From an uncultured bacterium (lineage in GTDB: Bacteria > Acidobacteriota > Thermoanaerobaculia > Multivoradales > JAHZIX01): a DNA stretch of 64,000 bases. Positions 6,121 to 40,408 of this stretch are shown here, one piece after another. How positions within the stretch are numbered: the first letter of the stretch is position 1; each line of letters begins with the position of its first letter. The translations under genes and the position numbers were made by a program. The stretch is from positions 83,540 through 147,539 of the forward strand of contig CBDUPA010000012.1 of the NCBI GenBank assembly GCA_965368975.1, read 5' to 3'. The notes beneath the pieces are model-generated. The model did not search any database and was not told the origin of the DNA. It worked only from the letters and a program-made list of their open reading frames with translations.

Positions 6121-6441
6121 GTCTCCCTCCTCTCGATGCTGCCGACTTAGTTGAGACCAGGACCTGCCAAGGAAATAAATATCAGTCTTTCTTTAATCTT
6201 ATAGCAAGACGGATCTCTGTCGAAGTCCCCCGGCCAGACGTCGGCTCTCCAGGGGGCATTTGCATGTGGTCGCATCTACTAGATCCGAGCCCACACTGCG
6301 GTGCCGGGGGCTGCGCCCTCCGGCCCGGTCCCTCGGCGGATCGAGCGTCGCCCCCAGCGAACTGTGTGGACCACATCCCAGACCGTCTCCGCTACAATCC
6401 CCTCGACCCTTCGCCACTTTTCGCAACCGGGGGATTGCTGC

Positions 6442-9306
6442 ATGCCCGAGCCGCTGTCTGTTTTTATTTCCTACTCACAAAAAGACGAGGCCTACCGTGA
6501 GGCTTTCGTCACGCACTGCGCCACGTTGCAGCAGCAAGGCTGGATCGATGCCTGGCACGATGGCCTGATCCCAACTGGTGAGGAATGGGAAGATGCGATT
6601 CTGGGCAAGCTGCGGAGCGCTCAGTTCGTGATGTGCCTGGTGTCGGCGAACTCGCTGGCGTCGGAGTACTGCTGCAAAGAGCGCGACGATGCGTTGGCGC
6701 GCGGTAAGCAATGCCTGGTGATTCCAGTGATTCTGGACGACTGTGACTGGCAGGCTTCACCGTTCGGTCGGCTGCAAGCCTTGCCCAAGCAGGCGGCGAT
6801 TGTGCCGGTGGCACTGTGGGAGAACCAGAATAGCGGTTGGAACAGCGTCATCCAGAGTCTGCGGCAGCTGATCAGGGAATGGTTTCCCACTCGAGCGAAA
6901 CAGGCGGCCTGGCCGAAGCCCAAGGGGCAGGTTGACGTCAACATCCACCGCCTCCCCACTCCCGGCCCGACCTTCGTCGGCCGCACGGACGAACTCGCCC
7001 GCCTCGACGCTGCCTGGACGAATCCGGACGTCCGCATCTTCAGCGTCGTGGCCGCGGGTGGCTTCGGCAAGTCGGCGCTGGTGCACCGGTGGACGCAGCA
7101 GTTGCAGGCGGACGGCTGGCGGGGCGCGGAGCGGGTGTTTGCGTGGTCGTTCTACTCTCAGGGGACGGCGGAAGCCCCGCAAGCTGGAGAAAGAGGGTCT
7201 CGACGCACGGCGGCGTCGGGGGAGCCGTTCTTGATCGAGGCGTTGGAGTGGTTCGGATGGGAGGGAGGGATACCCGCTTCAGCGAACAAGAAGGGCGAAG
7301 TCCTCGCCGACCTCGTGGCATCGACACGCACGCTCCTGATCCTGGACGGCCTGGAACCACTGCAACAGAGCAGCGAACTCCCCGGCGAGGCGGGCCACCG
7401 ACTGCTCGACCCGGGGATCAAGGCGTTCTTGCGCCAGCTGGCGACGAGTAACGCCGAGGGATTGTGCGTGCTGACGACACGGCTGCAAGTTGCCGACCTG
7501 GCGTCGCGGGAGGCTTCGACGGCGCCGGTGCTGCGGTTGGAGAAGTTGGAGAAGGCGACGGGCGCGGCGTTGTTGGAGGCGGTGGGGGTGACGGGGCCTC
7601 GGAAGGAGCTGGAGCGGGTGAGCAAGGAGTTCGAGGGGCATGCGTTGACGTTGCAGCTCTTTGGGACCTACCTGGTGAGGTACCACGGCGGCGGCATCAA
7701 GCACCGGACGGAGGTGCCGTCGCTTGTGACCAAGAAGGGGTTCCAGAATCCGGTAGAACGGGTGTTCAAGGCGTACGTCGAGCAGATGACGCCGGAGCAG
7801 TTGCGGGTGTTGTTGCTGCTCGGGCTGTTCGACCGTCCCGCCGAGCCGGAGGCGGTGGAGGCGGTACGGGCGGAGCCGGCGATTGCGGGGCTGACGGAGG
7901 GGATCAGCGCGGCGGACGAGGAGGCGTGGGTGGATGCGGTTGTCGAGCTGGAAGACTTGGGGTTGTTGCGGCGGGAGGGAGGAGCCTTGGACGCTCACCC
8001 TCTGGTGCGCGAGAGCTTCGGCGCGCGGTTGCAGACGGAGCACGCGGAGGCGTGGCGACAGGGCAATCGGCGGCTGTACGAGTATTACCAGGCGTCGACG
8101 GACGAGTTCCCGGAGACGCTGGAGCAGATGCTGCCGCTGTACACGGCGGTGGTGCATGGGTGTCGGGCGGGGTTGGAGCAGGAGGCGCTGCACGAGGTGT
8201 TGTTCAAGCGCATCAAGCGGGCTAGCGAATTCTACAGCACCAAGAAGCTCGGCGCCTTCGGCTCGGAGCTGACGGCGTTAGCGGCGCTGTTCGAGCGGCC
8301 CTGGGACCGTCCCGCCGTCGCGCTGACGGCAGCGGCCCAGGCGTGGCTGCTCAACCAGGCCGCCTTCGTGCTGCGCGCCCTGGGGCGGCTGTCGGAGGCG
8401 GTGGCGCCGATGGAGGCGGCGCTGGAGCTCGGCATCAAGCAGGAGAACTGGAAAGCAGCCGCGACCCGTGCCAGCAACCTCAGCGAGCTGACGCTGACGC
8501 TGGGGCGGGTGGCGGATGCGGTCGAGTTCGGGGCGCGCGGCGTCGAGTTGGCGGATCGGAGTGGGGATGAGTTCCAACGCATGGGTAACCGCACCACCCA
8601 GGCCGACGCGCTGCACCAGGCCGGCGTAATCGAGGCCGAATCAGGCGACGCCAGCGCGGCGCGCTTCGCCGAGGCCGAAGCGCTGCAGGCGGAGCGGCAG
8701 CCGCAGTACCCGAAGCTGTACTCGGTTCAGGGCTACCAGTACTGCGACCTGCTGCTGACGCAGTGCGCGCGGGCTGTGGACGTCTCGGCCGTGGACCTCT
8801 CGGCGGGGGAGCGGGCGGAGAAGCTCGACGCGGTGCGGCAGCGGGCGGAGACGACGTTGGCGTGGTTGACCCAGGCAGGGAAAGACGTCCTATCTGTCGC
8901 CCTGGACCACCTGACGCTCGGCCGGGTCCACCTGGCCCTGGAGCAGGTGAGCGAAGCGGCCCTGGCGCTGGAGCGGGCGGTGGCGGGGCTGCGGCAGGCT
9001 GGACACGAGTGGTTTTTACCCGCTGGCCTGTTGGCCCGCGCCGCGCTGCACCGCCACACCGGCGACGGCACGTCCGCCCGCCGTGACCTCGACGAAGCGC
9101 TGGAGATCGCCGAGCGGGGATCGATGCGGCTGCACGAGGCGGATGCGCACCTGGAGTGGGCGCGGTTGTTGTTGTCGGAGGGGAAGGTCGAGGAGGCGCG
9201 GGGGCACGTGGCGGTGGCGCGGCGGATTGTGGACGAGACGGGGTATGGGCGGCGTCAGCCTGAGATTGCGGAATTAGAGGAAAGGTTGGCGGTAGGTTCT
9301 GGGTAG
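6442..9306 (+). CDS. TIR domain / NB-ARC (STAND P-loop NTPase) / TPR-repeat protein.
   Basis: N-terminal TIR hallmark (FISYSQKDEAYREAF...WHD...E). Walker A GGFGKSAL near nt 7056-7080. Long C-terminal TPR-like helical repeats. The start was chosen at the ATG directly preceding the TIR domain. Confidence 0.8.
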   Translation: MPEPLSVFISYSQKDEAYREAFVTHCATLQQQGWIDAWHDGLIPTGEEWEDAILGKLRSAQFVMCLVSANSLASEYCCKERDDALARGKQCLVIPVILDDCDWQASPFGRLQALPKQAAIVPVALWENQNSGWNSVIQSLRQLIREWFPTRAKQAAWPKPKGQVDVNIHRLPTPGPTFVGRTDELARLDAAWTNPDVRIFSVVAAGGFGKSALVHRWTQQLQADGWRGAERVFAWSFYSQGTAEAPQAGERGSRRTAASGEPFLIEALEWFGWEGGIPASANKKGEVLADLVASTRTLLILDGLEPLQQSSELPGEAGHRLLDPGIKAFLRQLATSNAEGLCVLTTRLQVADLASREASTAPVLRLEKLEKATGAALLEAVGVTGPRKELERVSKEFEGHALTLQLFGTYLVRYHGGGIKHRTEVPSLVTKKGFQNPVERVFKAYVEQMTPEQLRVLLLLGLFDRPAEPEAVEAVRAEPAIAGLTEGISAADEEAWVDAVVELEDLGLLRREGGALDAHPLVRESFGARLQTEHAEAWRQGNRRLYEYYQASTDEFPETLEQMLPLYTAVVHGCRAGLEQEALHEVLFKRIKRASEFYSTKKLGAFGSELTALAALFERPWDRPAVALTAAAQAWLLNQAAFVLRALGRLSEAVAPMEAALELGIKQENWKAAATRASNLSELTLTLGRVADAVEFGARGVELADRSGDEFQRMGNRTTQADALHQAGVIEAESGDASAARFAEAEALQAERQPQYPKLYSVQGYQYCDLLLTQCARAVDVSAVDLSAGERAEKLDAVRQRAETTLAWLTQAGKDVLSVALDHLTLGRVHLALEQVSEAALALERAVAGLRQAGHEWFLPAGLLARAALHRHTGDGTSARRDLDEALEIAERGSMRLHEADAHLEWARLLLSEGKVEEARGHVAVARRIVDETGYGRRQPEIAELEERLAVGSG

Positions 9307-9360
9307 GGGCGTCCCCATGTGGGCGCCCTGCGGCGGAACGCCGCATCCGGATCCGGATCC

Positions 9361-9467
9361 GGAGGGCGCAATGCCTTGCGCCCCTACGACCCTCCCGCCC
9401 CCCGAACGATACGCATGCGGGATGACATTACCGATGCGGACGTTCGGGGTCCCAGGTTTGACCCTCC
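9361..9467. repeat. MITE-like repeat, copy A (truncated; left terminal inverted repeat intact).
   Basis: Begins GGAGGGCGCAATGCCTTGCGCCCCTACGACCC...CCGAACGATACGCAT... and ends ...CCCTCC. The left 30 bp is the exact reverse complement of the right end of copy C (19473-19502). Confidence 0.6.
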
Positions 9468-9528: not shown

Positions 9529-10647
9529 GTGCCCGAATCCTCCGAATCCCTAGCCACCTCGACCGACACGCTGGACCTCACCGTCCACCGCGACAAGTCG
9601 AGCGAATTCCGCACCATGACGGGCGAGCCGGCGGTGGAGGCGAGCATCATCTTGATCGCGCATCCGGAGCACCAGCGCATGGGCACGCGCTACCGCCTGG
9701 TACCGGGGGAGATGCTGGAGGTCGGGCGGTCGTCGAAGGCGGGGGTGAGTCTGCCGGAAGTGGCGGCGTTGTCGAGGGTGCACGCGCGGCTGCAGCATCG
9801 CGGGGAGTGGGTGACGCTGGAGGATCTGGGGTCGACCAATGGCACCTACATCAACGGCCGACGCCTGCACGAACCGACGGCGCTACACAGTGGCGATCGC
9901 TTCCAGGTCTCGTCGGTGCACTTCAAGTTCCTGCACGAGAAAGACGTCGAGGCGGCGTACCACGAGGCGATTTACAACCTGGTGGCGCACGACGGGTTGA
10001 CCGAGGCCTACACCAAGCGCAAGTACGAAGAAGAAGCGGCGCGCGAGCTGGCGCGGGCGGCGCGGCACCGGCGGCCGTTGTCGTTGATCCTTCTCGACCT
10101 CGACCACTTCAAAGACACCAACGACACCCACGGCCACCTGGCCGGCGACGCGCTGCTCAAGCACTTCGCGGTGGTGGTGCGCCGGCACTTGCGGCCGGAG
10201 CAGATCTTCGCCCGCGTGGGCGGCGACGAGTTTGTGGTGCTGTCGCCCGAGATGACGGCGGCGCAGGCGGAGCGGCTGGCCGAGCGGCTGTGCCACAAGC
10301 TGGCGGCGTCGCCGCTGGAGTATGAAGACGTGCGGCTGACGATCTCGGTGTCGTGCGGGGTCGCCGAGTATGCGATGGACATGGAGCGGCCCGAGGATCT
10401 CTACGCCGCTGCCGACCGGGCGCTGTACAAGGCCAAGCTGGCCGGCCGGGGACGCGCCGTGCGGGCGGAGACGAATTCGGGCGCCATGCCGCCGCTGCCG
10501 GGCTCGGACCGCCGGTTCGAGAGCCACGGCTTCGAGGCCGGCTCCGGCAACGACGCGGAGGAGTCTTCGACCGACGTGGGCGAAGCGAAGGAAGACGCCG
10601 CCCAGGATGCGGCTGGCCGCGACCCGCAAGCGGATACGCGGGGCTGA
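9529..10647 (+). CDS. FHA-domain-containing diguanylate cyclase (GGDEF).
   Basis: FHA-like region (...YRLVPGEMLEVGRSSKAGVSL...NGTYINGRRL...). GGDEF domain with an RxGGDEF-like VGGDEF motif and LDLDHFKDTND. The GTG start at 9529 has an upstream GAAGGA. Upstream in-frame sequence is MITE-derived and was excluded. Confidence 0.75.
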   Translation: MPESSESLATSTDTLDLTVHRDKSSEFRTMTGEPAVEASIILIAHPEHQRMGTRYRLVPGEMLEVGRSSKAGVSLPEVAALSRVHARLQHRGEWVTLEDLGSTNGTYINGRRLHEPTALHSGDRFQVSSVHFKFLHEKDVEAAYHEAIYNLVAHDGLTEAYTKRKYEEEAARELARAARHRRPLSLILLDLDHFKDTNDTHGHLAGDALLKHFAVVVRRHLRPEQIFARVGGDEFVVLSPEMTAAQAERLAERLCHKLAASPLEYEDVRLTISVSCGVAEYAMDMERPEDLYAAADRALYKAKLAGRGRAVRAETNSGAMPPLPGSDRRFESHGFEAGSGNDAEESSTDVGEAKEDAAQDAAGRDPQADTRG

Positions 10648-10673
10648 CGGCGAGCTTCGCCGAGGACGTCGAC

Positions 10674-12473
10674 ATGCTGCGCGAACTCCATGTACGCAAT
10701 CTCGCCGTGCTCGCCGGAGCGGCGGTGGATTTCGCCGCCGGCTTCAATGTGCTCACCGGCGAGACCGGTGCCGGCAAGTCGATCGTCGTCGACTGCCTGG
10801 AACTGCTGGCCGGGGGCCGTGCCAGTGCCGAGCTGATCCGAACCGACGCCGACAAGCTGATGGTCTCGGGCGTCTTCGAACCGGCCGGCAACGGCTGGAA
10901 GGTGCTGCTCGAAGAGGCCGGGCTGGACGCCGACGGGCGCGAGTTGCTGATCCGCCGCGAGGTCAGCCGCGAGGGGCGCAACCGGGTGTATGTGAACGAC
11001 CAGCCGACGACGCTGCGTCTGCTCGCGGACCTGGCACCGTCGCTGCTGCGCATCCACGGCCAGCGCGACGAGCTGGGGCTGATCTCGCCCGAGCTGCAGC
11101 GCGCCTGGCTCGATCGTGCCGGCGGCGACGAGGCCGGCCCACGGCTCGACGCGGTCGCCGACGCCCACCGCGCCTGGCGCCGGCTGGCACGGCGGCTCGA
11201 GAGCCTGACGGGTGACGAGGAGCTGCGCCGCCAGCGTCTCGACTTGCTGCGCTTCCAGGCGTCCGAGATCGACGCTGCTGAGGTGCGCGCCGGTGAGGAG
11301 GACGAGCTGCGCCAGGAGCGCGACCAGCTGCGCCACCGCGAGGCGGTGGTGGCGGCGCTGTCCGAGCTGGTCGAGCGGCTGTACGAGGGCGAGACGGCGG
11401 TGGTCGACGAGCTGGCCAAGAGTGGCCACCGGCTGCAGGACATCGGCGAGTGGGAGCCCGCGGCAGCGAGCTGGACGACGGAACTCGAGGAGCTGCGCAT
11501 CCGCGCCGAGGAGGTGGCGCGCGGCGTGCGCGAGCGCCTGGACGGCATGGAGAGCGACCCGCGACGCCTCAACGCGGTGGAGGACCGGCTGTCGACGCTC
11601 GAACGCCTGTGCCGCAAGTACCATGGCACGACCGACGACATCCTGGTGCGGCGCGCCGAGATCGCCGCCGAGCTCGAAGAGCTGGAAGGCGACGCCGAGA
11701 ACGTCGAGGAGCTGGAGGCCGAGGCGGCGGCGGCGCTGGACGTCTATCGCAAGGCCGCGCTGGCGCTGTCGGCGGCGCGCGTGCGCTGGGGACAGGGGCT
11801 GGCCGAGCGCATGACCGCCGAGCTGGCCGACCTGGCGCTGGCGCAGGCGCGGCTGGAGGTGCGGCTGGAGCGCAGGCCACAGCCGAGCAGTCCGCTGCTC
11901 GTCGACGGCGTGGCGGTCGACTTCTCGGCGGCGGGTGTCGACCAGGTCGCATTCTACTTCGCGCCCAACCCCGGCGAGGCACCGCAGCCGCTGTCCAAGA
12001 TCGCTTCTGGCGGTGAGCTGTCGCGCTTGTCGCTCGCTTTGCAGCTCGCGGCGCGGGCCGAAGGCATGCAAGATCGACCGACGCTGGTGTTCGACGAGGT
12101 CGACACCGGCATCGGCGGTGCCGAGGGTGCGGCGCTGGGGGCCAAGCTGCGACGCCTGGCGCGCGGTGGCCAGATCTTTGCCGTCACCCATCTGCCGCAG
12201 GTGGCCAGCTGCGGCGACCACCACCTGAAGGTGAGCAAGGAAGTGCGTGGCGGCCGGACCTTCGCCGAGGTCGAAGCGCTGAGCGACAGTGCCCGCGTCG
12301 ACGAGGTGGCGCGCATGCTCGGCGGCGAGACGCTGACGGACCTGTCGCGCCAGCACGCGCGCGAGCTGCTGCGGGATGGCCGTGAGCTACAGCGGGAAGG
12401 CACAGAGGGCGATCCGCCCTCCAGCAGCGGCAAGAAGCGCCCACGAGCCAAGCGCGCCGCCGCCGGGAGCTGA
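10674..12473 (+). CDS. recN: DNA repair protein RecN.
   Basis: N-terminus MLRELHVRNLAVL...FNVLTGETGAGKSIVVDCLELL. SMC-like coiled coil. C-terminal signature region. Confidence 0.9.
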   Translation: MLRELHVRNLAVLAGAAVDFAAGFNVLTGETGAGKSIVVDCLELLAGGRASAELIRTDADKLMVSGVFEPAGNGWKVLLEEAGLDADGRELLIRREVSREGRNRVYVNDQPTTLRLLADLAPSLLRIHGQRDELGLISPELQRAWLDRAGGDEAGPRLDAVADAHRAWRRLARRLESLTGDEELRRQRLDLLRFQASEIDAAEVRAGEEDELRQERDQLRHREAVVAALSELVERLYEGETAVVDELAKSGHRLQDIGEWEPAAASWTTELEELRIRAEEVARGVRERLDGMESDPRRLNAVEDRLSTLERLCRKYHGTTDDILVRRAEIAAELEELEGDAENVEELEAEAAAALDVYRKAALALSAARVRWGQGLAERMTAELADLALAQARLEVRLERRPQPSSPLLVDGVAVDFSAAGVDQVAFYFAPNPGEAPQPLSKIASGGELSRLSLALQLAARAEGMQDRPTLVFDEVDTGIGGAEGAALGAKLRRLARGGQIFAVTHLPQVASCGDHHLKVSKEVRGGRTFAEVEALSDSARVDEVARMLGGETLTDLSRQHARELLRDGRELQREGTEGDPPSSSGKKRPRAKRAAAGS

Positions 12474-15275: not shown

Positions 15276-17671
15276 TGTCGCCGCCGATGACACTTCTTCT
15301 TTCCACCTCGACCTCGAAGCCACGGAGACCGCTCGCCGCCATGACCCACTCCCCGCGTCCCCGCCCTGCGCGCCGCGCCTCACTGGCGCCGCTCACCGCC
15401 GCTCCGCTCACGGCTGCTCTGCTCACGACCGCCTTGCTGCTGTCTCCGGCCCTGGCACCGCCCGCGAGCGCCACCGAGGTCAAGATCTTCCGCACCGCCG
15501 ACCGCGCCGGCTTCCTGGCTGGTGAGCTCGACGGCGTCAGCCTCGATCAGCTCGGCCGCCTGCGCCTGGCGGATCGCATCGAGCGCGTCAGCACCGTCGA
15601 GGAACCGTACCTGTACGCCGCCGCGGACTATCCGTCCGAGGATGGCGGCGGCTGGGTCGTCGGCACCGGTAGCGCCGGGCGTGTGTACCACGTGCGCCAG
15701 GACGGCACCTCCTCGCTGCTGTTCGAGGTCGCTGAGCCGCAGGTGCTGAGCGTGCTCAGCCACGGCGGCGCCGTCTACGTCGGCACCGGTCCGACCCCCG
15801 GCGCCGAGGCCACCGGCAAGGTCTACCGCTACACGCCGCCAGCGTCCGGCAGCGACGAAGCGACGCTCGAAGTCTTGTTCGACAGCGGCGAGACCTATGT
15901 TTGGGCGCTGGCCATGCTGAGCGATGGTCGCCTGGCGGTCGGCACCGGTACGCAGGGCAAGCTGTTCGCCCTCGACCTGAAGCAGGATCTGGCCGAGCAG
16001 GAAGCCACCCTGCTGCACGACTCCACGGACATCCACATCCGCAGCCTGCTGGCGCTTCCCGAGGACGGCGACTTCGGTGGTGGCCTGCTCGCCGGCACCG
16101 CTGGCGAAGGCCTGCTGCTACACGTCGCCGCCAACGGCACCACGCGCACGCTCTACGACGCGGCGCAGCCCGAGATCACCGCGCTGACCGCCGGCCCGGA
16201 CGCTAGCGGCTCCGGCGTGCGCGCGTATGCCGCCGCCATCGCCTCTGAAGCCTCCGGCGTCGACCTCGCACGCCGCGCCGCCCAGCAACAGCAGCAGCAA
16301 AGCCAGGAAGACCCGAGCAACGGCGACTCGCAGGCCGAGCTCGTCGCCCCGACACCCGACGGCACCGTCGGCTCGCGTCCCGGCAATTTCCGCGGCGGTC
16401 GCAGTGAGATCCTCACCATCGCCGCCGATGGCGTCGTCGAGAGCCTGTGGACGTTCCAGGAACAGACCGTCTTCAGCCTGCTCTACCTGGATGACCGCCT
16501 GTGGCTCGGCACCGGCGTCGAGGGCGAGCTGTTCAGCTTCCGCGGCGGCGACATGGTGGTCGAGAAGCAGAGCGAGGAGCGGCAGGTGATGGCGCTGCTG
16601 GCGAGCGAAGACGGCCCCGTCCTGGCCACCACCAACGGCGCCGCCGTCTACCGCGCCAGCGGTGGTCGAGAATCGGCGGGCATCTACACCAGCAGCGTCT
16701 ACGATGCCGAGGCCGTTTCGCGCTTCGGCAGCTTCCGCTGGTACGGCTCGCAGGCCGAGAAGGCTGCCAGCTTCTCCTTCCGCTCCGGCCTCTCCGCCTT
16801 CCCGGACGCCACCTGGTCCGACTGGACCGCACCCAAGAACGGCCACGAGATCGCCCTCGACACCCTGCCTGCCGGCCGCTACGTGCAGTGGCGCGCCGAG
16901 CTGAAGAATGGCGACGTGAGCCCGCGTCTCGACGCCGTCGAGCTGAGCTACCGGCAGCGCAACGCCAAGCCGCGCATCCACGAGCTGAGCGTCCTGGAAC
17001 CGGGGCAGATCCTGGTCCCCAGCACCTTCAACCCCAACGGCCAGACGTTCGAACCCGCGCACCCCAACCGCGATGGCATCTTCACCACCCTGCAGCCTGC
17101 CGCGCGCGAGGATGCCCGCCTCAAGACGCTGTGGAAGCTTGGCTACCGCTCGCTGTCCTGGAAGACCGAAGATCCCAACCAGGACGACCTCGAGTACACG
17201 CTGTCGTTCCAGCGCCAAGCGGACGTGGCGCCGGCAGACGACTGGTTGCCGATGGTCGAGAAGCTCGACGACGACCACCTCAGCTTCGACGCCACCGTGC
17301 TGCCCGATGGCATCTACCGTTTCCGTCTCGAAGCCAGCGATGCCGAGGCCAACCTGCCCGGCGAAGGCCAGAGCGCCGAGCGCGTCAGTGAGCCGGTGGT
17401 GATCGACCACAGTGTGCCGGTGCTGGTCAAAGCCGAGCGCCAGGGCAGTACCCTGCAGGTCGAAGTGCGCGACGCCTGGAACCCCCTGCGCGAAGTCGTC
17501 TACAGCGTCGATGCCGGCGAATGGCAACGCGCTCCCACCGCCGATGCCCTGGTCGACGGTCGGCGCGAAGTGCTGCAGATTCCGATCCCCGAAGGCGCCA
17601 AGCTGCTGATCCTGCGCTGCACCGACGCTGCCCACAACGTCATTACCTTCGACTTGTCCGGAGAGCTGTGA
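15272..17671 (+). CDS. Secreted beta-propeller-repeat protein with an Ig-like C-terminal region (hypothetical).
   Basis: Signal peptide plus a repeated G(T)G..G(K/E)L(F/L) blade-like motif. 799 aa. Overlaps the neighbouring genes on both sides. Confidence 0.5.
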   Translation: MMSPPMTLLLSTSTSKPRRPLAAMTHSPRPRPARRASLAPLTAAPLTAALLTTALLLSPALAPPASATEVKIFRTADRAGFLAGELDGVSLDQLGRLRLADRIERVSTVEEPYLYAAADYPSEDGGGWVVGTGSAGRVYHVRQDGTSSLLFEVAEPQVLSVLSHGGAVYVGTGPTPGAEATGKVYRYTPPASGSDEATLEVLFDSGETYVWALAMLSDGRLAVGTGTQGKLFALDLKQDLAEQEATLLHDSTDIHIRSLLALPEDGDFGGGLLAGTAGEGLLLHVAANGTTRTLYDAAQPEITALTAGPDASGSGVRAYAAAIASEASGVDLARRAAQQQQQQSQEDPSNGDSQAELVAPTPDGTVGSRPGNFRGGRSEILTIAADGVVESLWTFQEQTVFSLLYLDDRLWLGTGVEGELFSFRGGDMVVEKQSEERQVMALLASEDGPVLATTNGAAVYRASGGRESAGIYTSSVYDAEAVSRFGSFRWYGSQAEKAASFSFRSGLSAFPDATWSDWTAPKNGHEIALDTLPAGRYVQWRAELKNGDVSPRLDAVELSYRQRNAKPRIHELSVLEPGQILVPSTFNPNGQTFEPAHPNRDGIFTTLQPAAREDARLKTLWKLGYRSLSWKTEDPNQDDLEYTLSFQRQADVAPADDWLPMVEKLDDDHLSFDATVLPDGIYRFRLEASDAEANLPGEGQSAERVSEPVVIDHSVPVLVKAERQGSTLQVEVRDAWNPLREVVYSVDAGEWQRAPTADALVDGRREVLQIPIPEGAKLLILRCTDAAHNVITFDLSGEL

Positions 17672-18171
17672 TGCCCCATCGACGTCCCCCCGGAGCCCCC
17701 CTCACTGCCGTCTACCCGGGCTCCTTCGACCCCATCCATCACGGCCATCTCGACCTGATCGAGCGCTGTAGCGTGCTGTTCGACGAAGTCATCGTCGGCG
17801 TGCTGCACAACGAAGCCAAGCAGCCGCTGTTCACCAGCGCCGAGCGCGTCGAGATGATCTCCGAGCAGGTCACCCCCTTCGGCAACTGCCGCGTCGAGGC
17901 CTTCTCCGGCCTGCTCGTCGACTTCGTCGAAGGCGCCGGCGCCTCCTGCGTCATCCGCGGCCTGCGCGCCGTCGCCGACTTCGAGTACGAGTTCCAGATG
18001 GCGCTGATGAACCGGCGTCTCAACCCGAGAGTCGAGACCATGTTCATGATGCCCAAGGAGGACTACACCTTCCTGTCCAGCCGGACGGTGAAAGAAGTCT
18101 TCTTCCTCGGCGGCAACCTGGATGGCCTGGTGCCTGAGGGCGTGATCGAGCGGATGAAGGAGAAGTTGTAG
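17671..18171 (+). CDS. coaD: Phosphopantetheine adenylyltransferase.
   Basis: AVYPGSFDPIHHGHLDLIERC... The T/HxGH nucleotidyltransferase motif and overall CoaD-like architecture are present. 166 aa. Confidence 0.9.
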   Translation: MPHRRPPGAPLTAVYPGSFDPIHHGHLDLIERCSVLFDEVIVGVLHNEAKQPLFTSAERVEMISEQVTPFGNCRVEAFSGLLVDFVEGAGASCVIRGLRAVADFEYEFQMALMNRRLNPRVETMFMMPKEDYTFLSSRTVKEVFFLGGNLDGLVPEGVIERMKEKL

Positions 18172-18182
18172 GGGTTCCAGGG

Positions 18183-18329
18183 GGAGGGCGCAATGCCTTG
18201 CGCCCCTACGACCCGCGCCCCCGCCCGAACGTTACGCATTCGGGAGATCCACCAGGCCGCGGAGTTCGTGCCGTGCGTAGCGTTCGGGGGAAGGGTGGTT
18301 CCGTAGGGGCGCAGGGGTCTGCGCCCTCT
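18183..18329. repeat. MITE-like repeat, copy B (complete).
   Basis: GGAGGGCGCAATGCCTTGCGCCCCTACGACCC...CCGAACGTTACGCAT...CGTTCGGGGG...CCGTAGGGGCGCAGGGGTCTGCGCCCTCT. It has terminal inverted repeats and internal hairpins. Confidence 0.65.
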
Positions 18330-18333
18330 GGTG

Positions 18334-19353
18334 TCACAACATTCCCCGCAGCCACGCTCTCAGCCACAGAGGCCACCGCTTCCACCGCCCCGCCTCGACC
18401 GCCAGCTCCGCCGCCTCGACGCACAGGCGACGCCGCCAGTGCTCGCGCACCGCGTCGAACGTGTAGTCCTTCGCCCGCTCGCGCCCGTTCTCGACCATCG
18501 CCCGGTACAGCCCTGGCTCGGTGCGCAAGCGTCGGATCGCCGCTTTGGCGTCGTCCAGGCCCTCCACCTCGATGTAGTCCAGCTCCGAGCGGCGCAACTC
18601 GCGGTACGCCGCTTCCGGTCCCAGCAGCGCCGGAACCCCGGCGTGCCAGGCATTGACCAGCTTGGTGGCGGGCTTCTTCGAGTGCAACCGGCGATCCGGC
18701 GGACGGACGGCGAGGACGAGGTCGACGTCGCGGTAGTCGGGCCAGTGTGTCTCGGGCATCTCTTCCTTCTGGAAGGCGACCGAGTCGAGGTCCCAGGTCA
18801 TGTCCTGGTCGTGCAGGAAGGTCGGCCACGAAGGGTCGTGGAACGCGGGGTGCAGGTTGCCGTGGAAGCCCTTGTACGCCAGGTGCTCGACACGCGTGCC
18901 GCGCTGCGGATCGCGCGCTTGCAGTCCTGCCTGCGGCCAGTGCGGCACGTGCACGCGTCGCTGACCCGCATGCAGTGAGTCGTCGGCATAGACCCCGTTC
19001 TGCAGGATCTCGAGATCCGCCAGCCGTGCCGGCTTGAGGTCGCCGCGCACGCCGACCAGGACGAGATCGGCGTCTGTACCGCGACGCTGCAACTCCTTGC
19101 GCAGCGTGTGGCGGTGCTTGCTGTGGAAGACGACAACCTTGCTCTCCGGTGACACCGCGGGCAGCGCGTCCACCAGTTCCGCGTCCACCGGCGGCGACTG
19201 GCCCGCTCGCCGCAAGCGCAGGCAGGTTTGCAGGATCCAGGCATGCTCGCCGCGTCGGAAGGCGGTCCAGTCGCGGTCGGGGTCGAGGTGGAGGAGGGAG
19301 GGGAGCCCACTATGGGAAGACTCGTCTTGGTGGGGGAGGTAGAAGAGGATCAT
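18334..19353 (-). CDS. Hypothetical protein, possibly a glycosyltransferase-like fold. It is bracketed by two MITE copies.
   Basis: 339-aa ORF. The C-terminal part (KPATKLVNAWHAGVPALL...) is weakly GT-like. The stop lies 5 bp outside MITE copy B, and the start is 15 bp from MITE copy C. Confidence 0.45.
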   Translation of the reverse strand: MILFYLPHQDESSHSGLPSLLHLDPDRDWTAFRRGEHAWILQTCLRLRRAGQSPPVDAELVDALPAVSPESKVVVFHSKHRHTLRKELQRRGTDADLVLVGVRGDLKPARLADLEILQNGVYADDSLHAGQRRVHVPHWPQAGLQARDPQRGTRVEHLAYKGFHGNLHPAFHDPSWPTFLHDQDMTWDLDSVAFQKEEMPETHWPDYRDVDLVLAVRPPDRRLHSKKPATKLVNAWHAGVPALLGPEAAYRELRRSELDYIEVEGLDDAKAAIRRLRTEPGLYRAMVENGRERAKDYTFDAVREHWRRRLCVEAAELAVEAGRWKRWPLWLRAWLRGML

Positions 19354-19370
19354 GGGGAGCCCTCATCCGC

Positions 19371-19502
19371 CCCGGAGGGCGCAGACCCCTGCGCCCCTAC
19401 AGACCCGCGCCGCCGCCCGAACGTTACGTGGTCCGAATCGTTCATGCCGTGCGTTCCGTTCGGGGGTTGGGGTGGGTCGTAGGGGCGCAAGGCATTGCGC
19501 CC
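19371..19502. repeat. MITE-like repeat, copy C (complete; inverted relative to copy B).
   Basis: GGAGGGCGCAGACCCCTGCGCCCCTACAGACCC...CCGAACGTTACG...GGGTCGTAGGGGCGCAAGGCATTGCGCCCT. It overlaps the 3' end of dusA. Confidence 0.65.
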
Positions 19503-20509
19503 TGGGTGGTGGTTGGCTCCGCCACCTTCCCCGCCGCCGCCACCAACACCTCGACGCCCGCACCGTCGAGATGCGCCTTCTCGCTCAGGTACCGTCGCCA
19601 TGCACGCGCCCCTGGCTGGCCGGCGAAGAGCCCCAGCAGGTGACGGCTGATCCGCTTCAGCGGCACCCCCGCCGCCAGCTGGCGCTCGACGTACGGAAAG
19701 AGCCCTTCGACGACCGCGCGGCGTGTTGGCACTTCACCGTCGTCGCCAAAGATCGCCGTGTCCACCGACGCGAGGAAGTACGGATCTTCGTACGCAGCCC
19801 GCCCGATCATGCAGGCGTCGACGTGACGCAGGTGCTCCTGGATCGCGTCCAGCGTGCGGATACCGCCGTTGATCTCGATGTGCAGGTGCGGGAACTCCCG
19901 CTTGAGCCGATACACGTCGTCATAGCGCAGCGGCGGAATCGTCCGGTTCTCCTTCGGGCTCAGCCCCGACAACCACGCCTTGCGCGCGTGCACCGTGAAC
20001 CGATCCGCCCCGGCGCGCGCCACCACCTCCACGAAGCGCGCCATGTCCTCATAGCGGTCCAGGTCGTCAATGCCGATGCGATGCTTCACCGTCACCGGCA
20101 ACGCTACCGCCCCGCGCATCGCCTCCACCGCCCGCGCCACCTTCTCCGGCTCGGCCATCAAGCAGGCGCCAAAGCTCCCTTTCTGCACCCGGTCGCTCGG
20201 GCAGCCGACGTTCAGGTTCACCTCGTCATAGCCCAGATCCGCCGCGATGCGCGCGCACTCGCTCAGCTCCGCCGGATCGTCGCCCCCCAGTTGCAGCGCC
20301 AGCGGATGCTCCACCTCGTCATAGCCGAGCAAGGCGTCGCGGTTCCCATGCAACACCGCTCCCGTCGTCACCATCTCCGTGTACAGCAGTGAGTGTCGTG
20401 TCAGCTGGCGCTGGAAGACGCGGAAGTGCCGGTCGCTGTGATCCATCATCGGGGCGATGGAGACGGACGGCGTCGAGGTGCGGGGAGTGGGGAGCGGCGT
20501 GGGCGTCAT
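19442..20509 (-). CDS. dusA: tRNA-dihydrouridine synthase A.
   Basis: DusA core (...NLNVGCPSDRVQKGSFGACLM..., HARKAWLSGLSPKENRTIPPL). The C-terminal ~20 aa are encoded by MITE copy C. Confidence 0.85.
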   Translation of the reverse strand: MTPTPLPTPRTSTPSVSIAPMMDHSDRHFRVFQRQLTRHSLLYTEMVTTGAVLHGNRDALLGYDEVEHPLALQLGGDDPAELSECARIAADLGYDEVNLNVGCPSDRVQKGSFGACLMAEPEKVARAVEAMRGAVALPVTVKHRIGIDDLDRYEDMARFVEVVARAGADRFTVHARKAWLSGLSPKENRTIPPLRYDDVYRLKREFPHLHIEINGGIRTLDAIQEHLRHVDACMIGRAAYEDPYFLASVDTAIFGDDGEVPTRRAVVEGLFPYVERQLAAGVPLKRISRHLLGLFAGQPGARAWRRYLSEKAHLDGAGVEVLVAAAGKVAEPTTTQGAMPCAPTTHPNPRTERTA

Positions 20510-33591: not shown

Positions 33592-34695
33592 TTGGCTACC
33601 GGATCGGACCGTGAATCCGGTCCGGTAGCGGTACTCCTGAGCACCGTTTTCGCCCCATCGCCTGGGCAGCCCCCTGCCCCGGTATACACTAGAGGCGTGA
33701 AACAACCCGAGTCTCCGGAATCTGAGCATCCGGACCGTGATCCGGTCCCCGTACCGCCGGCTTCTCTGCAGGCTACTGCCGAGACGGAAGGCAACTACCC
33801 CGACCTGTACCTGGTTGCCGAGTGCGGCGAGCAGGATCAAGAGAAATTGGTGCGCGAACTGGTGGCCCCGATCGTGGCCGAGATCCGGGATCATCCGGAA
33901 CTCGAGTCGCTGTTCTTCGTGCGCATGAGCAAGCCTACCTGGCAAGTCCGCCTGCGTGTCGTCGGAGACTTGGAGTGGTTGCAGAACCGCTGCAGGCGCG
34001 TGATGTGCCTGCGTCTCGACGCCTTGCGCGGCCGGCGGGCGGTGCACGACTTCAGCCTGGGGCACTACGGGCGTGAGCTCGAGCGCTACGGCGGTGAAGG
34101 CGGCATGCGCATCGCCGAACAGCTGTACCACCACGACTCGCTCGCCTGCTTGGACCTGATCACCGCCGAGGCCCGCGGCCTGCTCGAACGTTCGCGGCGT
34201 GAGCTGGCGCTGCTCTACAGCGAGCGGCTGGCCAATCGGTTGGGCCTGCATGGCGAAGACCGCTCGCGCTTTTACCGCTACGGCTACCAGTGGACCTTCC
34301 AGACCGAGACCTGGGACCAGAGCGATGCCGACGCACTAGAAGAACGGTTCGAGCAACTGGAGGCCGGGCTGCGCTCCCTCTTTCCGCTGGGTGGCAAGGC
34401 ACCGCCCGAGACGGATCTCTGGGGCGGAGACGAGCCGGCGCGCGTTGGTGCCGGCCTGGCAGCGTCGCAAGAACCAGCGCTGGCACGGCTGCTCAAGGGG
34501 CACAGGGCGGGGCGCATCGGCGGTGATCTGGCCTACCTCGGCTGGTCCTACTGCCACCTCTTCTGCAACCGCCTGGGCATCGACCCGTCCGGCGAGGCGG
34601 TACAGCGCTACCTGATGCACCTGTACCACTACCGCGTCCGTGCCCAGGGCTCGCTGCCGGGGCCCTTGCTCACCGAAGCGGCCAGCGACACCTGA
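33592..34695 (+). CDS. Putative RiPP-biosynthesis accessory protein (possibly a SpaB_C / thiopeptide-type elimination-domain-like protein). Function uncertain.
   Basis: 367-aa ORF tightly linked to the precursor (7-bp gap) and to the LanB-like gene (4-bp gap). The 5' 150 nt contain two copies of the hairpin GGACCGTGA(A)TCCGGTCC, so the true start may lie downstream. Confidence 0.35.
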   Translation: MATGSDRESGPVAVLLSTVFAPSPGQPPAPVYTRGVKQPESPESEHPDRDPVPVPPASLQATAETEGNYPDLYLVAECGEQDQEKLVRELVAPIVAEIRDHPELESLFFVRMSKPTWQVRLRVVGDLEWLQNRCRRVMCLRLDALRGRRAVHDFSLGHYGRELERYGGEGGMRIAEQLYHHDSLACLDLITAEARGLLERSRRELALLYSERLANRLGLHGEDRSRFYRYGYQWTFQTETWDQSDADALEERFEQLEAGLRSLFPLGGKAPPETDLWGGDEPARVGAGLAASQEPALARLLKGHRAGRIGGDLAYLGWSYCHLFCNRLGIDPSGEAVQRYLMHLYHYRVRAQGSLPGPLLTEAASDT

Positions 34696-34698
34696 ACG

Positions 34699-37464
34699 AT
34701 GGGGGACGGCTACCCCCGAGAGGCGGACTGCTGGCAGAGAGGGCCCCGCATCGCCCTCCTACGACTGGCGTTGCAACCCTGGCAGCGTCTGCAGGCTCTG
34801 CGCGCCGACGCGACCGTCGGGCACCTGGCCGTGGCCCGCCAGGCACAGGCCGAGCTCGACGCCCTCGTGCCGACGCTCGAGGCCGCACTGTTCACCGCCG
34901 CCGGTCCCAAGCGTCCCGCCGCCGGTCCCGTGGAGGCAGCGCGACGCCTGGCGTGCGTCGCGCTACGGCGGGCGGTGCACAATGGTCGGGAGTTGGACGC
35001 CTCGACACTCGGGAGCAGTGACCGCGACGGTGATCTGCAAGGGCAGCTGCAGCGATATAGCGAGCTGAAGGCTACTGTCGAGCGTGCCCGTGCCGCGGCG
35101 TTGCAGGCCTGCCAGGCCGAGTTGCCGCGGGCACGTCAGCACGTTCTCGACGCCAGCGCTGAACCGCTCCAGGCGGCGGCGCTAGCACTGGTCAGCCGAT
35201 CGCTGTTCCGCCGGCTGCAGCGTCTGCAGGCCGCAGCCGCACCCCATACTCAGGCCCGCGACGCCCAGACCCACGATACGCGTCACACCGTCGCCAAACT
35301 GCTCGCCTACCTCGACCGTGCCGCCAGCAAGACCAGCCCCAACGGCCTTTTCTGCGCCACCGCCGTCGCAACCTGGGGCGAGCGCCTGAACGTCCACCGC
35401 CTCGCTACGCCGCCGCGTGTCGATCTGCGCCTCAACGTCACCGAAGCGCGCAAACTCACCGCCCACCTCGGCTTCGGCCCGCAGATGGATGCCCTCGTGC
35501 GACCCCGTGTCACCACGACGCTGCATCGCCAATCCGCGGAGTCCGGCGAAGTCCTGACCTTCTGGCGCACAGCCTCGCTGCGTCGACCTGAGGACGACGA
35601 AGCTCTCCAGCGCCTGGGCGCACAGCCGATCGTCGACCTCTTCGTGCAACTGGCGGATGGTCGTCGCTCCGTTCCCGAACTCCTCCTGGCCGTCGCCAGC
35701 GCGGCGGCAGAGCACGGCATGGAAGTCAGCGTCGAGCAATTGGAGCCCTTCTTCCGCCAGCTCGTCGACGCCGGCCTGCTGCACGCCGAGATCGAGCTGC
35801 CGTACGGCTGCGGCCGCCCCCTGCGCGCGTTTGCGCATCGAGTTGAGGAACCGGCTGTCGACGGGGCCCCAAGGATTGCCGAGCTCGAAGCCATCGAAGC
35901 CGACCTCGACGCCGTCAACGCCACGCCCATCGAGGCCGCCGCTGCCGTCCGTCTGCCCGCCATCCTCGACGACCTGGCACGGCGTCTCGACGCCCAGGCA
36001 GCCACCCTGCCCGAACTGGCCCGGCCGCTCGTGCGCGATGAACTCTTCCGTCTCGACGCGGCCCTCGACGCGGCACCCGGTCGGCAAACCACCCTGCCGT
36101 GTCCCTGGCGCGACGCCCTGCAGCCCACCGTCGACGGCTACGCGCGCCTGTTCGCCTCGATGTACCCGTCGTCAAACTATCGTCAGCGCCTGGCGTCCGC
36201 CTTCCTGGAGCACTGGCCCGCGGACACCGACATCCCCCTGCTCGACCTCTACCATCACTTCCAACCACCACCCCCGGATTCCCGCGTACTCGACTTCCCG
36301 TGCCCGAGCAGCGATGTCGATAGCCAGCCGTACCAAGCCTGGCAGCAAGCCCGCGCCCTGCTCGTCGAGCTGGCCAGACAGGCCAGGGCGGCCGGGGAGC
36401 ACGAAGTCCGTCTCGACGACACCGCCTGGCATGCCTTGACGCATCCGCTTTCCGACCCAACCGGTCCTTCTGAGACGCTGAAGTGGACCGCCGGCGTTCT
36501 CTTCCAGCCCGTGCTCGCCAGTTCCGCGAACCGAAAGCAGCAGAACCGGCTCGTCCTCAACGCCCTCTTCTCGGGCACCGGCGTTGCCTTCGCCCGCTTT
36601 GCCGACCTGCACCCCGAAGTCGAGCCTGAGCTGCGCCGGCAACTCCGTGCCTCGGACTCTGCCGAAACCGCCCAAGTCCCCATCGTCGCCGAGCTGACCT
36701 ACAACCACTGGGGCCGCACCGCCAACGCCGGCCTGCGTCCACGACTCCACGAGTGGGAACTCGAACTCCCCGGTGACCGCGCCTCCGATGCTGGCTACGC
36801 CGCTGGCAAGGTCCTCACCCTCGCCGACCTCACCCTGCGCTACGACTCCACCGAGCAGCGCTTCCACCTGCGTCGCATCCAAGACGGTCGCCAGGTCCTC
36901 CCCGTTCTGTCGAGCGGCGTCAGCCCCGAAGGCCTGGTGGCGCTGCTGGTGGCGATCGGGCGTCAAGAGCAGCAGCCCCTTGGTCTGCTCCCCGGCTTCG
37001 CCTGGCCGGAAGAAGAGCTGGAACAAGACTTCCCAGACGGCGTTGAGACCTGGCCCCGCTTCGTCCGAGCTGTTTCTTCGGAGGCAGGCACTGACGAGAT
37101 CGACCTCGAAATCGTCCTCTGGCGCCGCCGCTGGCGCTTCCCCCGCGCCACCATTCCCAAACCCCCAAAGTCCCGCCCCGGCGACGACGCTGACCTCCAC
37201 CTCGCTACCTACTTCGCAGCCGTCGACACCTGGCGCCACCACCACCTCCTTCCTCGCCACATCTACCTCCACACCGCCACCGTCCGCAAGCCCACCCACG
37301 TCGATCTCGAATCCCCCCTCCACGTCGAGCTGCTGCGTCGACGCCTGGCGTCAGAGAAGGGAGATGTCTACGTCACCGAAGCGCTGCCGGGGCCAGAGGG
37401 TCTGTGGTGGGGCGGTGGAGACGAGCGCTCGAACGTCGAGGTGCTGGTGCAGTTGGGGGTGTGA
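34699..37464 (+). CDS. LanB-type dehydratase N-terminal (glutamyl-tRNA-dependent glutamylation) domain protein. It may be a split LanB or a PEARL-like peptide aminoacyl-tRNA ligase.
   Basis: 921 aa. Contains ...ASKTSPNGLFCATAV..., which matches the conserved [RK]-x-T-[PS]-x-G-L-F-[AS] motif of the Lant_dehydr_N domain. The size fits stand-alone glutamylation-domain enzymes. No elimination domain is fused. Confidence 0.55.
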   Translation: MGDGYPREADCWQRGPRIALLRLALQPWQRLQALRADATVGHLAVARQAQAELDALVPTLEAALFTAAGPKRPAAGPVEAARRLACVALRRAVHNGRELDASTLGSSDRDGDLQGQLQRYSELKATVERARAAALQACQAELPRARQHVLDASAEPLQAAALALVSRSLFRRLQRLQAAAAPHTQARDAQTHDTRHTVAKLLAYLDRAASKTSPNGLFCATAVATWGERLNVHRLATPPRVDLRLNVTEARKLTAHLGFGPQMDALVRPRVTTTLHRQSAESGEVLTFWRTASLRRPEDDEALQRLGAQPIVDLFVQLADGRRSVPELLLAVASAAAEHGMEVSVEQLEPFFRQLVDAGLLHAEIELPYGCGRPLRAFAHRVEEPAVDGAPRIAELEAIEADLDAVNATPIEAAAAVRLPAILDDLARRLDAQAATLPELARPLVRDELFRLDAALDAAPGRQTTLPCPWRDALQPTVDGYARLFASMYPSSNYRQRLASAFLEHWPADTDIPLLDLYHHFQPPPPDSRVLDFPCPSSDVDSQPYQAWQQARALLVELARQARAAGEHEVRLDDTAWHALTHPLSDPTGPSETLKWTAGVLFQPVLASSANRKQQNRLVLNALFSGTGVAFARFADLHPEVEPELRRQLRASDSAETAQVPIVAELTYNHWGRTANAGLRPRLHEWELELPGDRASDAGYAAGKVLTLADLTLRYDSTEQRFHLRRIQDGRQVLPVLSSGVSPEGLVALLVAIGRQEQQPLGLLPGFAWPEEELEQDFPDGVETWPRFVRAVSSEAGTDEIDLEIVLWRRRWRFPRATIPKPPKSRPGDDADLHLATYFAAVDTWRHHHLLPRHIYLHTATVRKPTHVDLESPLHVELLRRRLASEKGDVYVTEALPGPEGLWWGGGDERSNVEVLVQLGV

Positions 37465-40362: not shown

Positions 40363-40408
40363 AGCTCGAGGCCGGTCCGAAAACAAAAGCAAAATTGCGA
40401 GGTTGAAC

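Follow-up and report, generated by a model that had tools for sequence, protein, structure and literature searches.

Three genes, encoding a coaD-like (Cytidylyltransferase-like) protein, a glycosyltransferase-like protein and DusA, are separated by two spacers, and each spacer carries an element of ~140 bp. Two full elements had been reported in the earlier note, at 18183–18329 and 19371–19502; both are present, align with each other end to end over their whole length, and yield nhmmer E-values of 1.5e-43 (element A) and 1.4e-36 (element B). Moreover, a third, truncated group is found at 9303–9449, and in total the window (the whole 64-kb stretch of DNA analyzed) contains three sites and six REP units. 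The features are listed below.

9303–9449: third site, REP group with a partial copy of the element at 9361–9449, the right-hand REP missing
9303–9328, plus strand: variant GTAG hairpin of the third site
9364–9387, minus strand: iREP unit, variant 1, of the third site
9401–9449: core palindrome CCCGAACGATACG...CGGACGTTCGGGG of the third site
17521–18171, plus strand: coaD-like gene, real start probably ATG 17671
18177–18331 with outer CCAG...CTGG, 18183–18329 without: element A, read as a REP doublet, in the convergent coaD / glycosyltransferase-like spacer
18186–18209, minus strand: iREP unit, variant 1 (GTAGGGGCGCAAGGCATTGCGCCC), of element A, with GTAG, 8-bp stem and GGCA loop
18210–18302, plus strand: spacer core of element A, with arms CCCGAACGTTACG (18224–18236) and CGTAGCGTTCGGG (18276–18288)
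18303–18326, plus strand: REP unit, variant 2 (GTAGGGGCGCAGGGGTCTGCGCCC), of element A, with G:C closing pair and GGGT loop
18334–19353, minus strand: glycosyltransferase-like gene, 339 aa, Pfam PF13524
19372–19505, also delimited as 19371–19503: element B, read as a REP doublet, from the dusA 3' end to the glycosyltransferase-like start, overlapping the tail of the dusA ORF
19377–19400, minus strand: iREP unit, variant 2, of element B
19401–19478, plus strand: spacer core of element B, with arms at 19416–19428 and 19452–19464, co-oriented with the core of element A
19442–20509, minus strand: dusA, tRNA dihydrouridine synthase A, Pfam Dus 290.8 bits
19479–19502, plus strand: REP unit, variant 1, of element B

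Placement at gene ends

All three sites are located at ORF 3' ends, element A in a convergent spacer, element B and the third site in co-directional ones. This agrees well with GTAG-REP dimers, for which a position close to the 3' end of the adjoining ORF, at distances of up to 20 bp, is expected in both convergent and co-directional spacers (PMC3733652). Element A together with its outer CCAG/CTGG covers 155 of the 162 intergenic bases, and the TAG stop of the coaD-like gene lies 5–11 nt before it. Between element A and the stop codon of the glycosyltransferase-like gene there are 4 nt, and 17 nt separate the start codon of this gene from element B; the distances originally given were 5 and 15 bp.

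Nor does element B lie wholly outside genes: the dusA ORF reads about 20 codons into element B and stops inside it, with its last ~20 codons, ending in TTTQGAMPCAPTTHPNPRTERTA, and the stop codon all encoded by the element. Aligned with other DusA proteins, the sequence loses homology before this tail begins. At the third site, the ORF at 6301–9306 terminates at the TAG (9304–9306) of the GTAG head. Both the provision of a stop codon by GTAG and the overlap with ORF tails are known behaviors of REPs (PMC3733652).

Hairpin units and architecture of the elements

The repeated unit consists of GTAG, an 8-bp GC stem GGGCGCA[A/G], a 4-nt loop and [T/C]TGCGCCC, and this formula holds for five of five exact units; the variant GTAG hairpin at 9303–9328 is the only further one. 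The previously described end motif is real, as GGGCGCANNNCNTTGCGCCCCTAC has six matches in the window at up to three mismatches, compared to 0.01 expected from shuffles, while GTAGGGGCGCA has five exact occurrences in the window, and six matches against 1.67 expected if one mismatch is allowed. Two variants of the unit differ in the stem-closing pair, A:T in variant 1 and G:C in variant 2, that is, by a compensated change, and in the loop (GGCA and GGGT, respectively). The unit is thus a short palindromic GC-rich stem-loop with GTAG directly 5' of the stem; the published definition of REP is a 20–50-nt palindrome with GTAG before it (PMC8266576), and a GTAG-headed GC hairpin is the defining REP architecture (PMC3733652, PMC8266576).

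In elements A and B, two inverted units with the GTAG heads facing inward are placed across a self-complementary spacer of 78–93 nt, and the doublet is a REP tail-to-tail heterodimer, forming one long hairpin when folded. The 30-bp sequence and its reverse complement, taken in the earlier note for the two ends of one element, in fact belong to different elements, being the outer end of A and that of B. The internal palindrome CCCGAACGTTACG / CGTnnCGTTCGGG was correctly identified and is present in both elements, at 18224–18236 and 18276–18288 in A and at 19416–19428 and 19452–19464 in B. The whole unit, as single-stranded DNA or RNA, is predicted to fold into a single imperfect hairpin of ~65 bp. 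For element A the DNA fold has –54.1 kcal/mol (z –7.3), and the RNA folds of the two strands, –101.5 and –95.4 kcal/mol; for element B these values are –47.8 kcal/mol (z –5.7) for DNA and –85.7 kcal/mol (z –7.5) for minus-strand RNA. The z-scores of the RNA folds of A and B range from –7.5 to –8.3, that of the DNA fold of the third group is –7.2, and none of the shuffles was as stable as A, B or the third group. The Rfam search gave no match at the gathering threshold, and at the E-value threshold only a sub-threshold match to a miRNA hairpin.

This anatomy closely resembles GTAG-REP dimers, including the SMAG repeats of S. maltophilia (Di Nocera, De Gregorio & Rocco 2013, PMC3733652). In these dimers GTAG stands beside a 6–13-bp GC stem with a short loop, and in the tail-to-tail heterodimers inverted units with inward GTAG are spaced by 20–100 bp, the partners differ in loop or stem, and the structured spacer yields a single large hairpin. 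On the other hand, the 78–93-nt spacer with the CCCGAACG...CGTTCGGG palindrome is specific for the family described here and was not found elsewhere among the metagenome contigs and comparison loci, and no family consensus containing GGGCGC appears in the running text of that paper.

The elements are also similar to the REPINs of Pseudomonas fluorescens (Bertels & Rainey 2011, PMC3116915; PMC3337134; PMC5581495), hairpin-shaped and non-autonomous doublets of two inverted REPs and a spacer, whose copying is attributed to a domesticated Y1 transposase present in single copy (PMC3116915; PMC3337134; PMC5581495). REPIN singlets look like decayed doublets, and so does the partial copy at 9361–9449; the REP sequence of the window is nevertheless unrelated to those of Pseudomonas. 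The combination of REP and iREP with a linker between them is likewise characteristic of E. coli REP/BIME (PMC8266576; PMC3479197), but the E. coli (group 2) stems are bulged and imperfect, whereas the units in the window are short and perfectly paired, like group 3 of Pseudomonas and Stenotrophomonas.

RAYT genes and the range of the family

Neither a Y1 transposase nor an IS or any other transposase is encoded in the 64-kb window. The same head and stem are, however, found beside RAYT genes in other bacteria. In L120 (Gemmatimonadota), a RAYT-like ORF, with a Pfam Y1_Tnp match and REP_Tyr_transpos as its best NCBIfam match (E 1.6e-18), has GTAGGGGCGCAGCATGCTGCGCCCCTAC on both sides. Three homologues of this protein (51–68% identity), selected by protein similarity alone, have the identical palindrome bordering the gene; L207 and L208-210 carry it on either side, and L211 carries it downstream. 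Hence GTAG with the 8-bp stem adjoins the RAYT gene in four of four cases examined, all on independent contigs. Variant 2 of the window shares with this palindrome GTAG and the full 8-bp stem, and only the loop differs. The RAYT-flanking REP is a self-complementary 28-mer ending with CTAC, and its sequence is unchanged even between transposases that are only about 50% identical; the units in the window, unlike these REPs, have no 3' CTAC.

The 28-mer is also observed in MAGs of many phyla.

As for the composite element, nhmmer searches against the comparison loci gave matches only at the level of a single REP unit. Eighty matches to CGTTCGGG-N10-18-GTAGGGGCGCA in metagenome contigs were considered as further copies and rejected: as all of them lack both the second arm and the core palindrome, these are chance or unrelated juxtapositions. 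A literal full-text search of the literature for GTAGGGGCGCA returned one unrelated paper only. The failure to find the composite element elsewhere fits a lineage-specific family of REP dimers. Previously catalogued GTAG REPs come from Proteobacteria, Cyanobacteria, Chloroflexi and the PVC group (PMC3733652), a list that lacks the phylum of the Acidobacteriota-like host; moreover, long TIRs, and not such REPs, have been reported for acidobacterial RAYT-like genes (PMC3733652), which is a point against the REP reading.

Possible mobility of the repeats and of the enclosed gene

Taken together, we consider it likely that the ~140-bp "MITE-like" elements are GTAG-tagged REP hairpin doublets of the REPIN/BIME type, that is, GTAG-REP dimers. 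The directly established features are the anatomy, the predicted fold, the location at gene ends, the lack of target-site duplications, and the association of the REP head and stem with RAYT elsewhere. The repeats probably constitute a dispersed, structured, non-autonomous and mobile family, and a RAYT tyrosine transposase was probably their mobilizer in the source genome. TnpA(REP) is known to require GTAG for recognition, to act on a folded single strand and to leave no target-site duplication (PMC8266576; PMC3479197). A chromosomal RAYT/TnpA(REP), an HUH tyrosine enzyme, would bind the GTAG hairpin formed by folding of single-stranded DNA, then cut and rejoin beside it, with no target-site duplication left.

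Doublets fixed at gene 3' ends would be transcribed as very stable RNA hairpins, probably acting as attenuators or protecting the 3' end. Element A would serve the convergent transcripts of coaD and the glycosyltransferase-like gene, and element B would lie between dusA and the glycosyltransferase-like gene. As no canonical promoter or terminator signal was detected in the scan, this role at the RNA level is one that we infer.

The alternative that retains most weight, while still improbable, is that of non-mobile structured intergenic sequences, protein-binding sites or hairpins at transcript 3' ends, which selection would maintain and which would have been copied a few times locally, with no transposase today. 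It agrees with the high stability of the hairpins on both strands, with the location of every site at a gene 3' end, with the compensated base-pair change in the stem, and with the presence of only three sites and no RAYT within the window. However, the genes next to the sites are unrelated and lie 9 kb apart, the modular combination of GTAG hairpin and spacer is the architecture of mobile REP dimers, and in head and stem the REPs agree with those cognate to a RAYT clade. Besides, such a reading describes present function and is compatible with a RAYT origin.

Still less probable is that the elements, called MITE-like in the earlier note, are classical MITEs, deletion derivatives of an IS that are mobilized in trans, with a DDE transposase recognizing terminal inverted repeats of ~30 bp. 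The size of 135–155 bp, inverted ends, multiple copies and lack of coding capacity fit this model, and the elements are comparable to bacterial MITEs such as Correia, ERIC and RUP (PMC3184786) in size, inverted ends, intergenic location and hairpin-forming transcripts. Yet MITEs have target-site duplications and DDE-type, IS-derived ends, and neither is seen in the window. We looked for target-site duplications at A, B and the third site, as had been proposed, and found no direct repeat in the flanks; as the element boundaries are fuzzy, this is only a weak positive for the REP class and Y1/HUH chemistry. The ends are GTAG-headed hairpins that also occur singly and differently paired at 9303–9387, which is REP behavior, the same head and stem adjoin Y1 (RAYT) rather than DDE genes, and no IS or transposase accompanies them in the window.

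The geometry of the locus had also been interpreted as a composite mobile unit or a gene insertion. In such a model A and B would jointly form the termini of a ~1.3-kb cassette, with which the glycosyltransferase-like gene would have entered the coaD–dusA interval by a MITE- or REP-mediated process. We regard this as highly improbable. The gene is indeed tightly bracketed, and A and B show 87% complementarity over their outermost 54 nt and 83% at the inner ends, but REP dimers as a rule lie close against ORF ends (PMC3733652). The opposite orientation of the two copies holds only in part: the 6-nt loops are swapped between A and B, which is the inverted reading, but the whole elements are identical at 109/152 positions both in the direct alignment and after reverse complementation, and the spacer cores are co-oriented, not mirrored, fitting the direct alignment better (score 54 vs 15; left arms 27/33 vs 22/32). 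No duplication is found around the whole unit 18177–19505.

In its composition and the origin of its homologues, the enclosed gene also tends to speak against transfer. Its product is, as stated earlier, weakly glycosyltransferase-like, the 339-aa ORF matching Pfam Glyco_trans_1_2 (PF13524) barely above the threshold (25.8 bits, cut-off 25); NCBIfam has no family for this protein, and a PDB sequence search gave nothing meaningful. Its homologues have 47–54% identity, are labelled glycosyltransferase and come mostly from Acidobacteriota, the best ones having 53–54%, and DusA homologues belong to the same phylum. The composition of the gene is ordinary for the window in GC (68.7%), GC3 (87%) and codon bias (0.244). 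Homologues of the glycosyltransferase-like gene occur in unrelated contexts in other genomes, a point in favor of the cassette, but the context of dusA is likewise not conserved among the nearest available relatives (best DusA match 74%), and thus this variability is not specific. No conserved neighborhood was seen at loci P0123, P0139 and P0005. P0122, tried as a close DusA relative (725 bits), was rejected, as its 526-aa product contains the Dus domain in duplicate, the DNA identity is only 74% and synteny is lacking.

Finally, the adjacency of two of the three occupied spacers is expected by chance (p = 0.17–0.26), with three sites among about 30 spacers in the window. As the sites are so few, the repeat, although probably a REP, is not the ubiquitous sequence after most genes named in the earlier note as an outcome that would speak against its proposal. 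Equally implausible is a RAYT-mobilizable cassette, in which direct REPs (18303 and 19479 on the plus strand, or 18186 and 19377 on the minus strand) serve as IS200/IS605-like left and right ends and the glycosyltransferase-like gene is single-stranded cargo of a domesticated REP transposase; each doublet has REPs of both orientations, leaving directly oriented pairs around the gene that a Y1 enzyme could use in principle, and this, if true, would be the first gene mobilization by REP/RAYT machinery. Nothing points to the flanking doublets as movers of the gene, and such a role is not supported. Under the preferred REP-doublet reading the glycosyltransferase-like gene would be a resident, flanked by doublets because both its intergenic spacers were colonized.

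The elements thus probably belong to a known kind, REP doublets, and the extension is modest, bringing GTAG-type REP dimers into an Acidobacteriota-like lineage. This annotation prevents the family from being mistaken for a MITE or for a sign of gene transfer, and it accounts for the unusual C-terminal tail predicted for dusA. The by-product, a RAYT clade with its cognate 28-mer REP, is of more interest than the locus itself, with the 28-mer providing a handle for REP/RAYT co-evolution outside Gammaproteobacteria.

Structure and gene context of the repeats

In the region 18172-19505, a 339-aa minus-strand ORF lies between two repeats of about 140 bp: element A (18177-18331), in the spacer separating it from a coaD-like gene, and element B (19372-19505), between its start and the 3' end of dusA. 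Both contain opposed GTAG-headed hairpin units (REPs, or iREPs in the inverted orientation) in two variants, which have different loops and a compensated change of the stem-closing pair, A:T vs G:C.

Features of the region and of the third site (coordinates, strand, description)
9303-9328, plus, variant GTAG hairpin, part of the third site
9364-9387, minus, REP variant 1 (GTAG-GGGCGCAA-GGCA-TTGCGCCC)
17521/17671-18171, plus, coaD-like cytidylyltransferase
18186-18209, minus, REP variant 1
18303-18326, plus, REP variant 2 (GTAG-GGGCGCAG-GGGT-CTGCGCCC)
18334-19353, minus, 339-aa ORF, glycosyltransferase-like (Pfam Glyco_trans_1_2, 25.8 bits vs cut-off 25)
19377-19400, minus, REP variant 2
19442-20509, minus, dusA (Pfam Dus, 290.8 bits)
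19479-19502, plus, REP variant 1

Elements A and B are alignable end to end, in agreement with the earlier note, which had described two complete copies; to these we add a truncated third copy at 9361-9449, while repeat search and an nhmmer element profile yield no further one in the window. The end motif has six matches in the window versus 0.01 expected from dinucleotide-preserving shuffles. The end repeats reported as 30-bp terminal inverted repeats are real, but each of them is a GTAG-headed hairpin. In both elements the GTAG heads point inward, across a spacer (A, 93 nt; B, 78 nt) that carries its own palindrome, CCCGAACGTTACG...CGTnnCGTTCGGG, as noted earlier. Each doublet folds overall into one long hairpin, with values reached by none of the shuffles: for element A, –54.1 kcal/mol (z –7.3) as plus-strand DNA, –101.5 (z –8.3) as plus-strand RNA and –95.4 (z –7.5) as minus-strand RNA; for element B, –47.8 kcal/mol (z –5.7) as plus-strand DNA and –85.7 (z –7.5) as minus-strand RNA.

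The description of A and B as an inverted pair applies to the loop variants, which are swapped (iREP variant 1 and REP variant 2 in A, iREP variant 2 and REP variant 1 in B), but not to the spacer cores, whose left-type and right-type arms lie on the same strand in both elements (direct score 54 vs inverted 15). Whichever relative orientation is chosen, A and B are identical at 109/152 positions over the whole element; as the element itself is quasi-palindromic, its orientation says little.

The enclosed ORF is separated from the elements by 4 nt and 17 nt, not 5 and 15 bp, and the 17-nt gap contains a GAGG ribosome-binding site. Element B lies partly inside the called dusA ORF, encoding its stop codon and the ~20 residues preceding it (QGAMPCAPTTHPNPRTERTA), and similarity to other DusA proteins stops just short of this tail. 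Immediately ahead of element A, the coaD stop codon falls within a GTAGGGG string (18168-18174) that may be the remnant of a REP head.

At the third site (9303-9449) there is no single doublet but a group made up of the variant hairpin, a small hairpin, a variant 1 iREP and the core palindrome, without the right-hand REP. The TAG of its GTAG head (9303-9306) doubles as the stop codon of the gene 6301-9306. The protein encoded by the latter (1001 aa) combines a ThsB-like TIR domain with an AAA_16 NTPase domain and TPR repeats, a STAND-like architecture that may have a role in defence.

The gene scan of the window reveals no transposase; the remaining scanned part is core chromosome (recN-like, tsaC/sua5, tgt, yajC, secDF) and a defence island. 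The latter, a defence-island-like minus-strand cluster at 53802-63999, consists of a UvrD/GajB-like helicase (53802-55967), a DruE-like helicase of 2165 aa carrying an MZB domain (55964-62461) and a type IIG restriction-methyltransferase that continues past the window edge, with its C-terminal part at 62458-63999. Three consecutive plus-strand ORFs of ~1300 aa (40403-52258) have no match in PADLOC; the N-terminal domain of the first is tubulin-like (Tubulin_2), and the third contains a DEAD helicase domain. At 33592-37464, a LanB-type lanthipeptide dehydratase is split into two adjacent genes, with Lant_dehydr_C upstream of Lant_dehydr_N.

Class of the elements

GTAG REP families have 6–13-bp stems and short loops; their dimers have units 20–100 bp apart, tail-to-tail if GTAG is inside, are frequently heterodimers, fold as one hairpin due to structured spacers, and reside no more than 20 bp from the 3' ends of ORFs, in spacers of the convergent and co-directional types, and GTAG termini can provide TAG stop codons (Di Nocera et al., PMC3733652). 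All these features are found in the window elements too. REP and iREP units are often paired across a linker (PMC8266576), and REPINs, replicating units of two inverted REPs and a spacer, embody the same concept (PMC3116915, PMC3337134). None of the three sites shows a target-site duplication, which fits Y1/HUH chemistry and counts against a DDE-type MITE. The earlier assignment to small non-autonomous mobile-type repeats stands, whereas the MITE class does not: the elements of this Acidobacteriota-like MAG belong to a family of GTAG-REP tail-to-tail heterodimers, or REPIN-like units, and closely fit the published definitions. The composite element with this spacer did not turn up in the JGI metagenome contigs searched or in the collected loci, and the dimer family is apparently lineage-specific. 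Rfam has no family matching the elements.

The enclosed gene

The earlier note had taken the bracketing as a composite mobile unit or a MITE-mediated gene insertion. That A and B moved the glycosyltransferase-like gene as a cassette is, in our view, very improbable. Against it, the composition of the gene is unremarkable (GC 68.7%, GC3 87.1%, codon-usage distance from other window genes 0.244, mid-range), and its nearest non-self homologues (47–54% identity) are, where labeled, from Acidobacteriota, Thermoanaerobaculia or Holophagales, the top DusA homologues (best real match ~74%) being largely Acidobacteriota too. Moreover, at least two of three occupied spacers would be adjacent by chance with probability 0.17–0.26 (given 22–34 spacers), and REPs normally abut ORF ends closely (PMC3733652). 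On these grounds we read the bracketing as colonization of two neighboring spacers by coincidence. Synteny around this gene and dusA is already scrambled among the nearest genomes compared. One of the collected loci (L123:10001-11581; GCA_038530905.1, JBCBCF010000059.1) encodes a 526-aa DusA-annotated protein in which the Dus region is duplicated internally; its similarity score is inflated, as stretches 10044-10655 and 10688-11141 both align to 19858-20475 of the window.

Association with RAYTs and possible role

TnpA(REP)/RAYT, the REP-associated tyrosine transposase, is an HUH enzyme acting on REPs as folded single strands (PMC8266576). Scanning of species-representative genomes for GTAGGGGCGCA-N6-TGCGCCC produced at least 120 loci (L003-L122). 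Among the matches listed, the motif often forms a self-complementary 28-mer, GTAGGGGCGCAGCATGCTGCGCCCCTAC, and is seen in MAGs of many phyla, among them Chloroflexota, Cyanobacteria, Gemmatimonadota, Acidobacteriota, Planctomycetota, Binatia, Bacteroidota and Armatimonadota; only a few loop types recur (GCATGC at least 49 times, CGGCCG at least 23), and the heterodimer pair ...AATTCATT... / ...GATTCATC... recurs in MAGs of Thermoanaerobaculia, Armatimonadia, Deltaproteobacteria and Coriobacteriales.

A motif screen of the listed loci identified three RAYT-like ORFs. The one from Nostoc (L101) is a bona fide RAYT (NCBIfam, 208 bits vs cut-off 80); that from Gemmatimonadota (L120, 6971-7883) matches Pfam Y1_Tnp and, best in NCBIfam, REP_Tyr_transpos (E 1.6e-18); for that from Anaerolineales (L021), REP_Tyr_transpos is likewise the top NCBIfam match, though below the cut-off (E 1.1e-14). 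The L120 ORF has the 28-mer on both sides and further copies downstream. For an independent test, the L120 protein was the sole query, and three homologues (51–68% identity) were taken by protein sequence only; many of its homologues carry the JGI label “REP element-mobilizing transposase RayT.” The identical palindrome flanks the gene on both sides in L207 (2857-3829) and L208-210 (L208:2919-3972), and overlaps the stop codon of the RAYT homologue in L211 (3549-3576). Hence, there exists in other genomes a RAYT clade whose cognate REP exactly matches the window variant 2 in its GTAG head and its 8-bp stem. As the 28-mer is identical in homologues this diverged from the L120 protein, the REP is far more conserved than the transposase; and, the 28-mer being self-complementary, REP and iREP are one sequence in this clade.

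About ten related contigs from soil metagenomes (L148, L163, L167, L168, L171, L180, L182, L190, L194, L204) also have the same 28-mer, always at one position of a conserved stretch that looks coding; it is intact there amid diverged flanks and may be an intragenic REP.

Given the association in other genomes, the doublets were probably spread by a RAYT that works on single-stranded DNA. The signal scan found neither T-tract terminators nor sigma-70-like promoters. The doublets are presumably transcribed and would form 3'-end hairpins serving as a stabilizer or attenuator: element A may provide such a hairpin for the convergent coaD and glycosyltransferase-like transcripts, and element B may tune how far dusA transcription reads through into the gene downstream.
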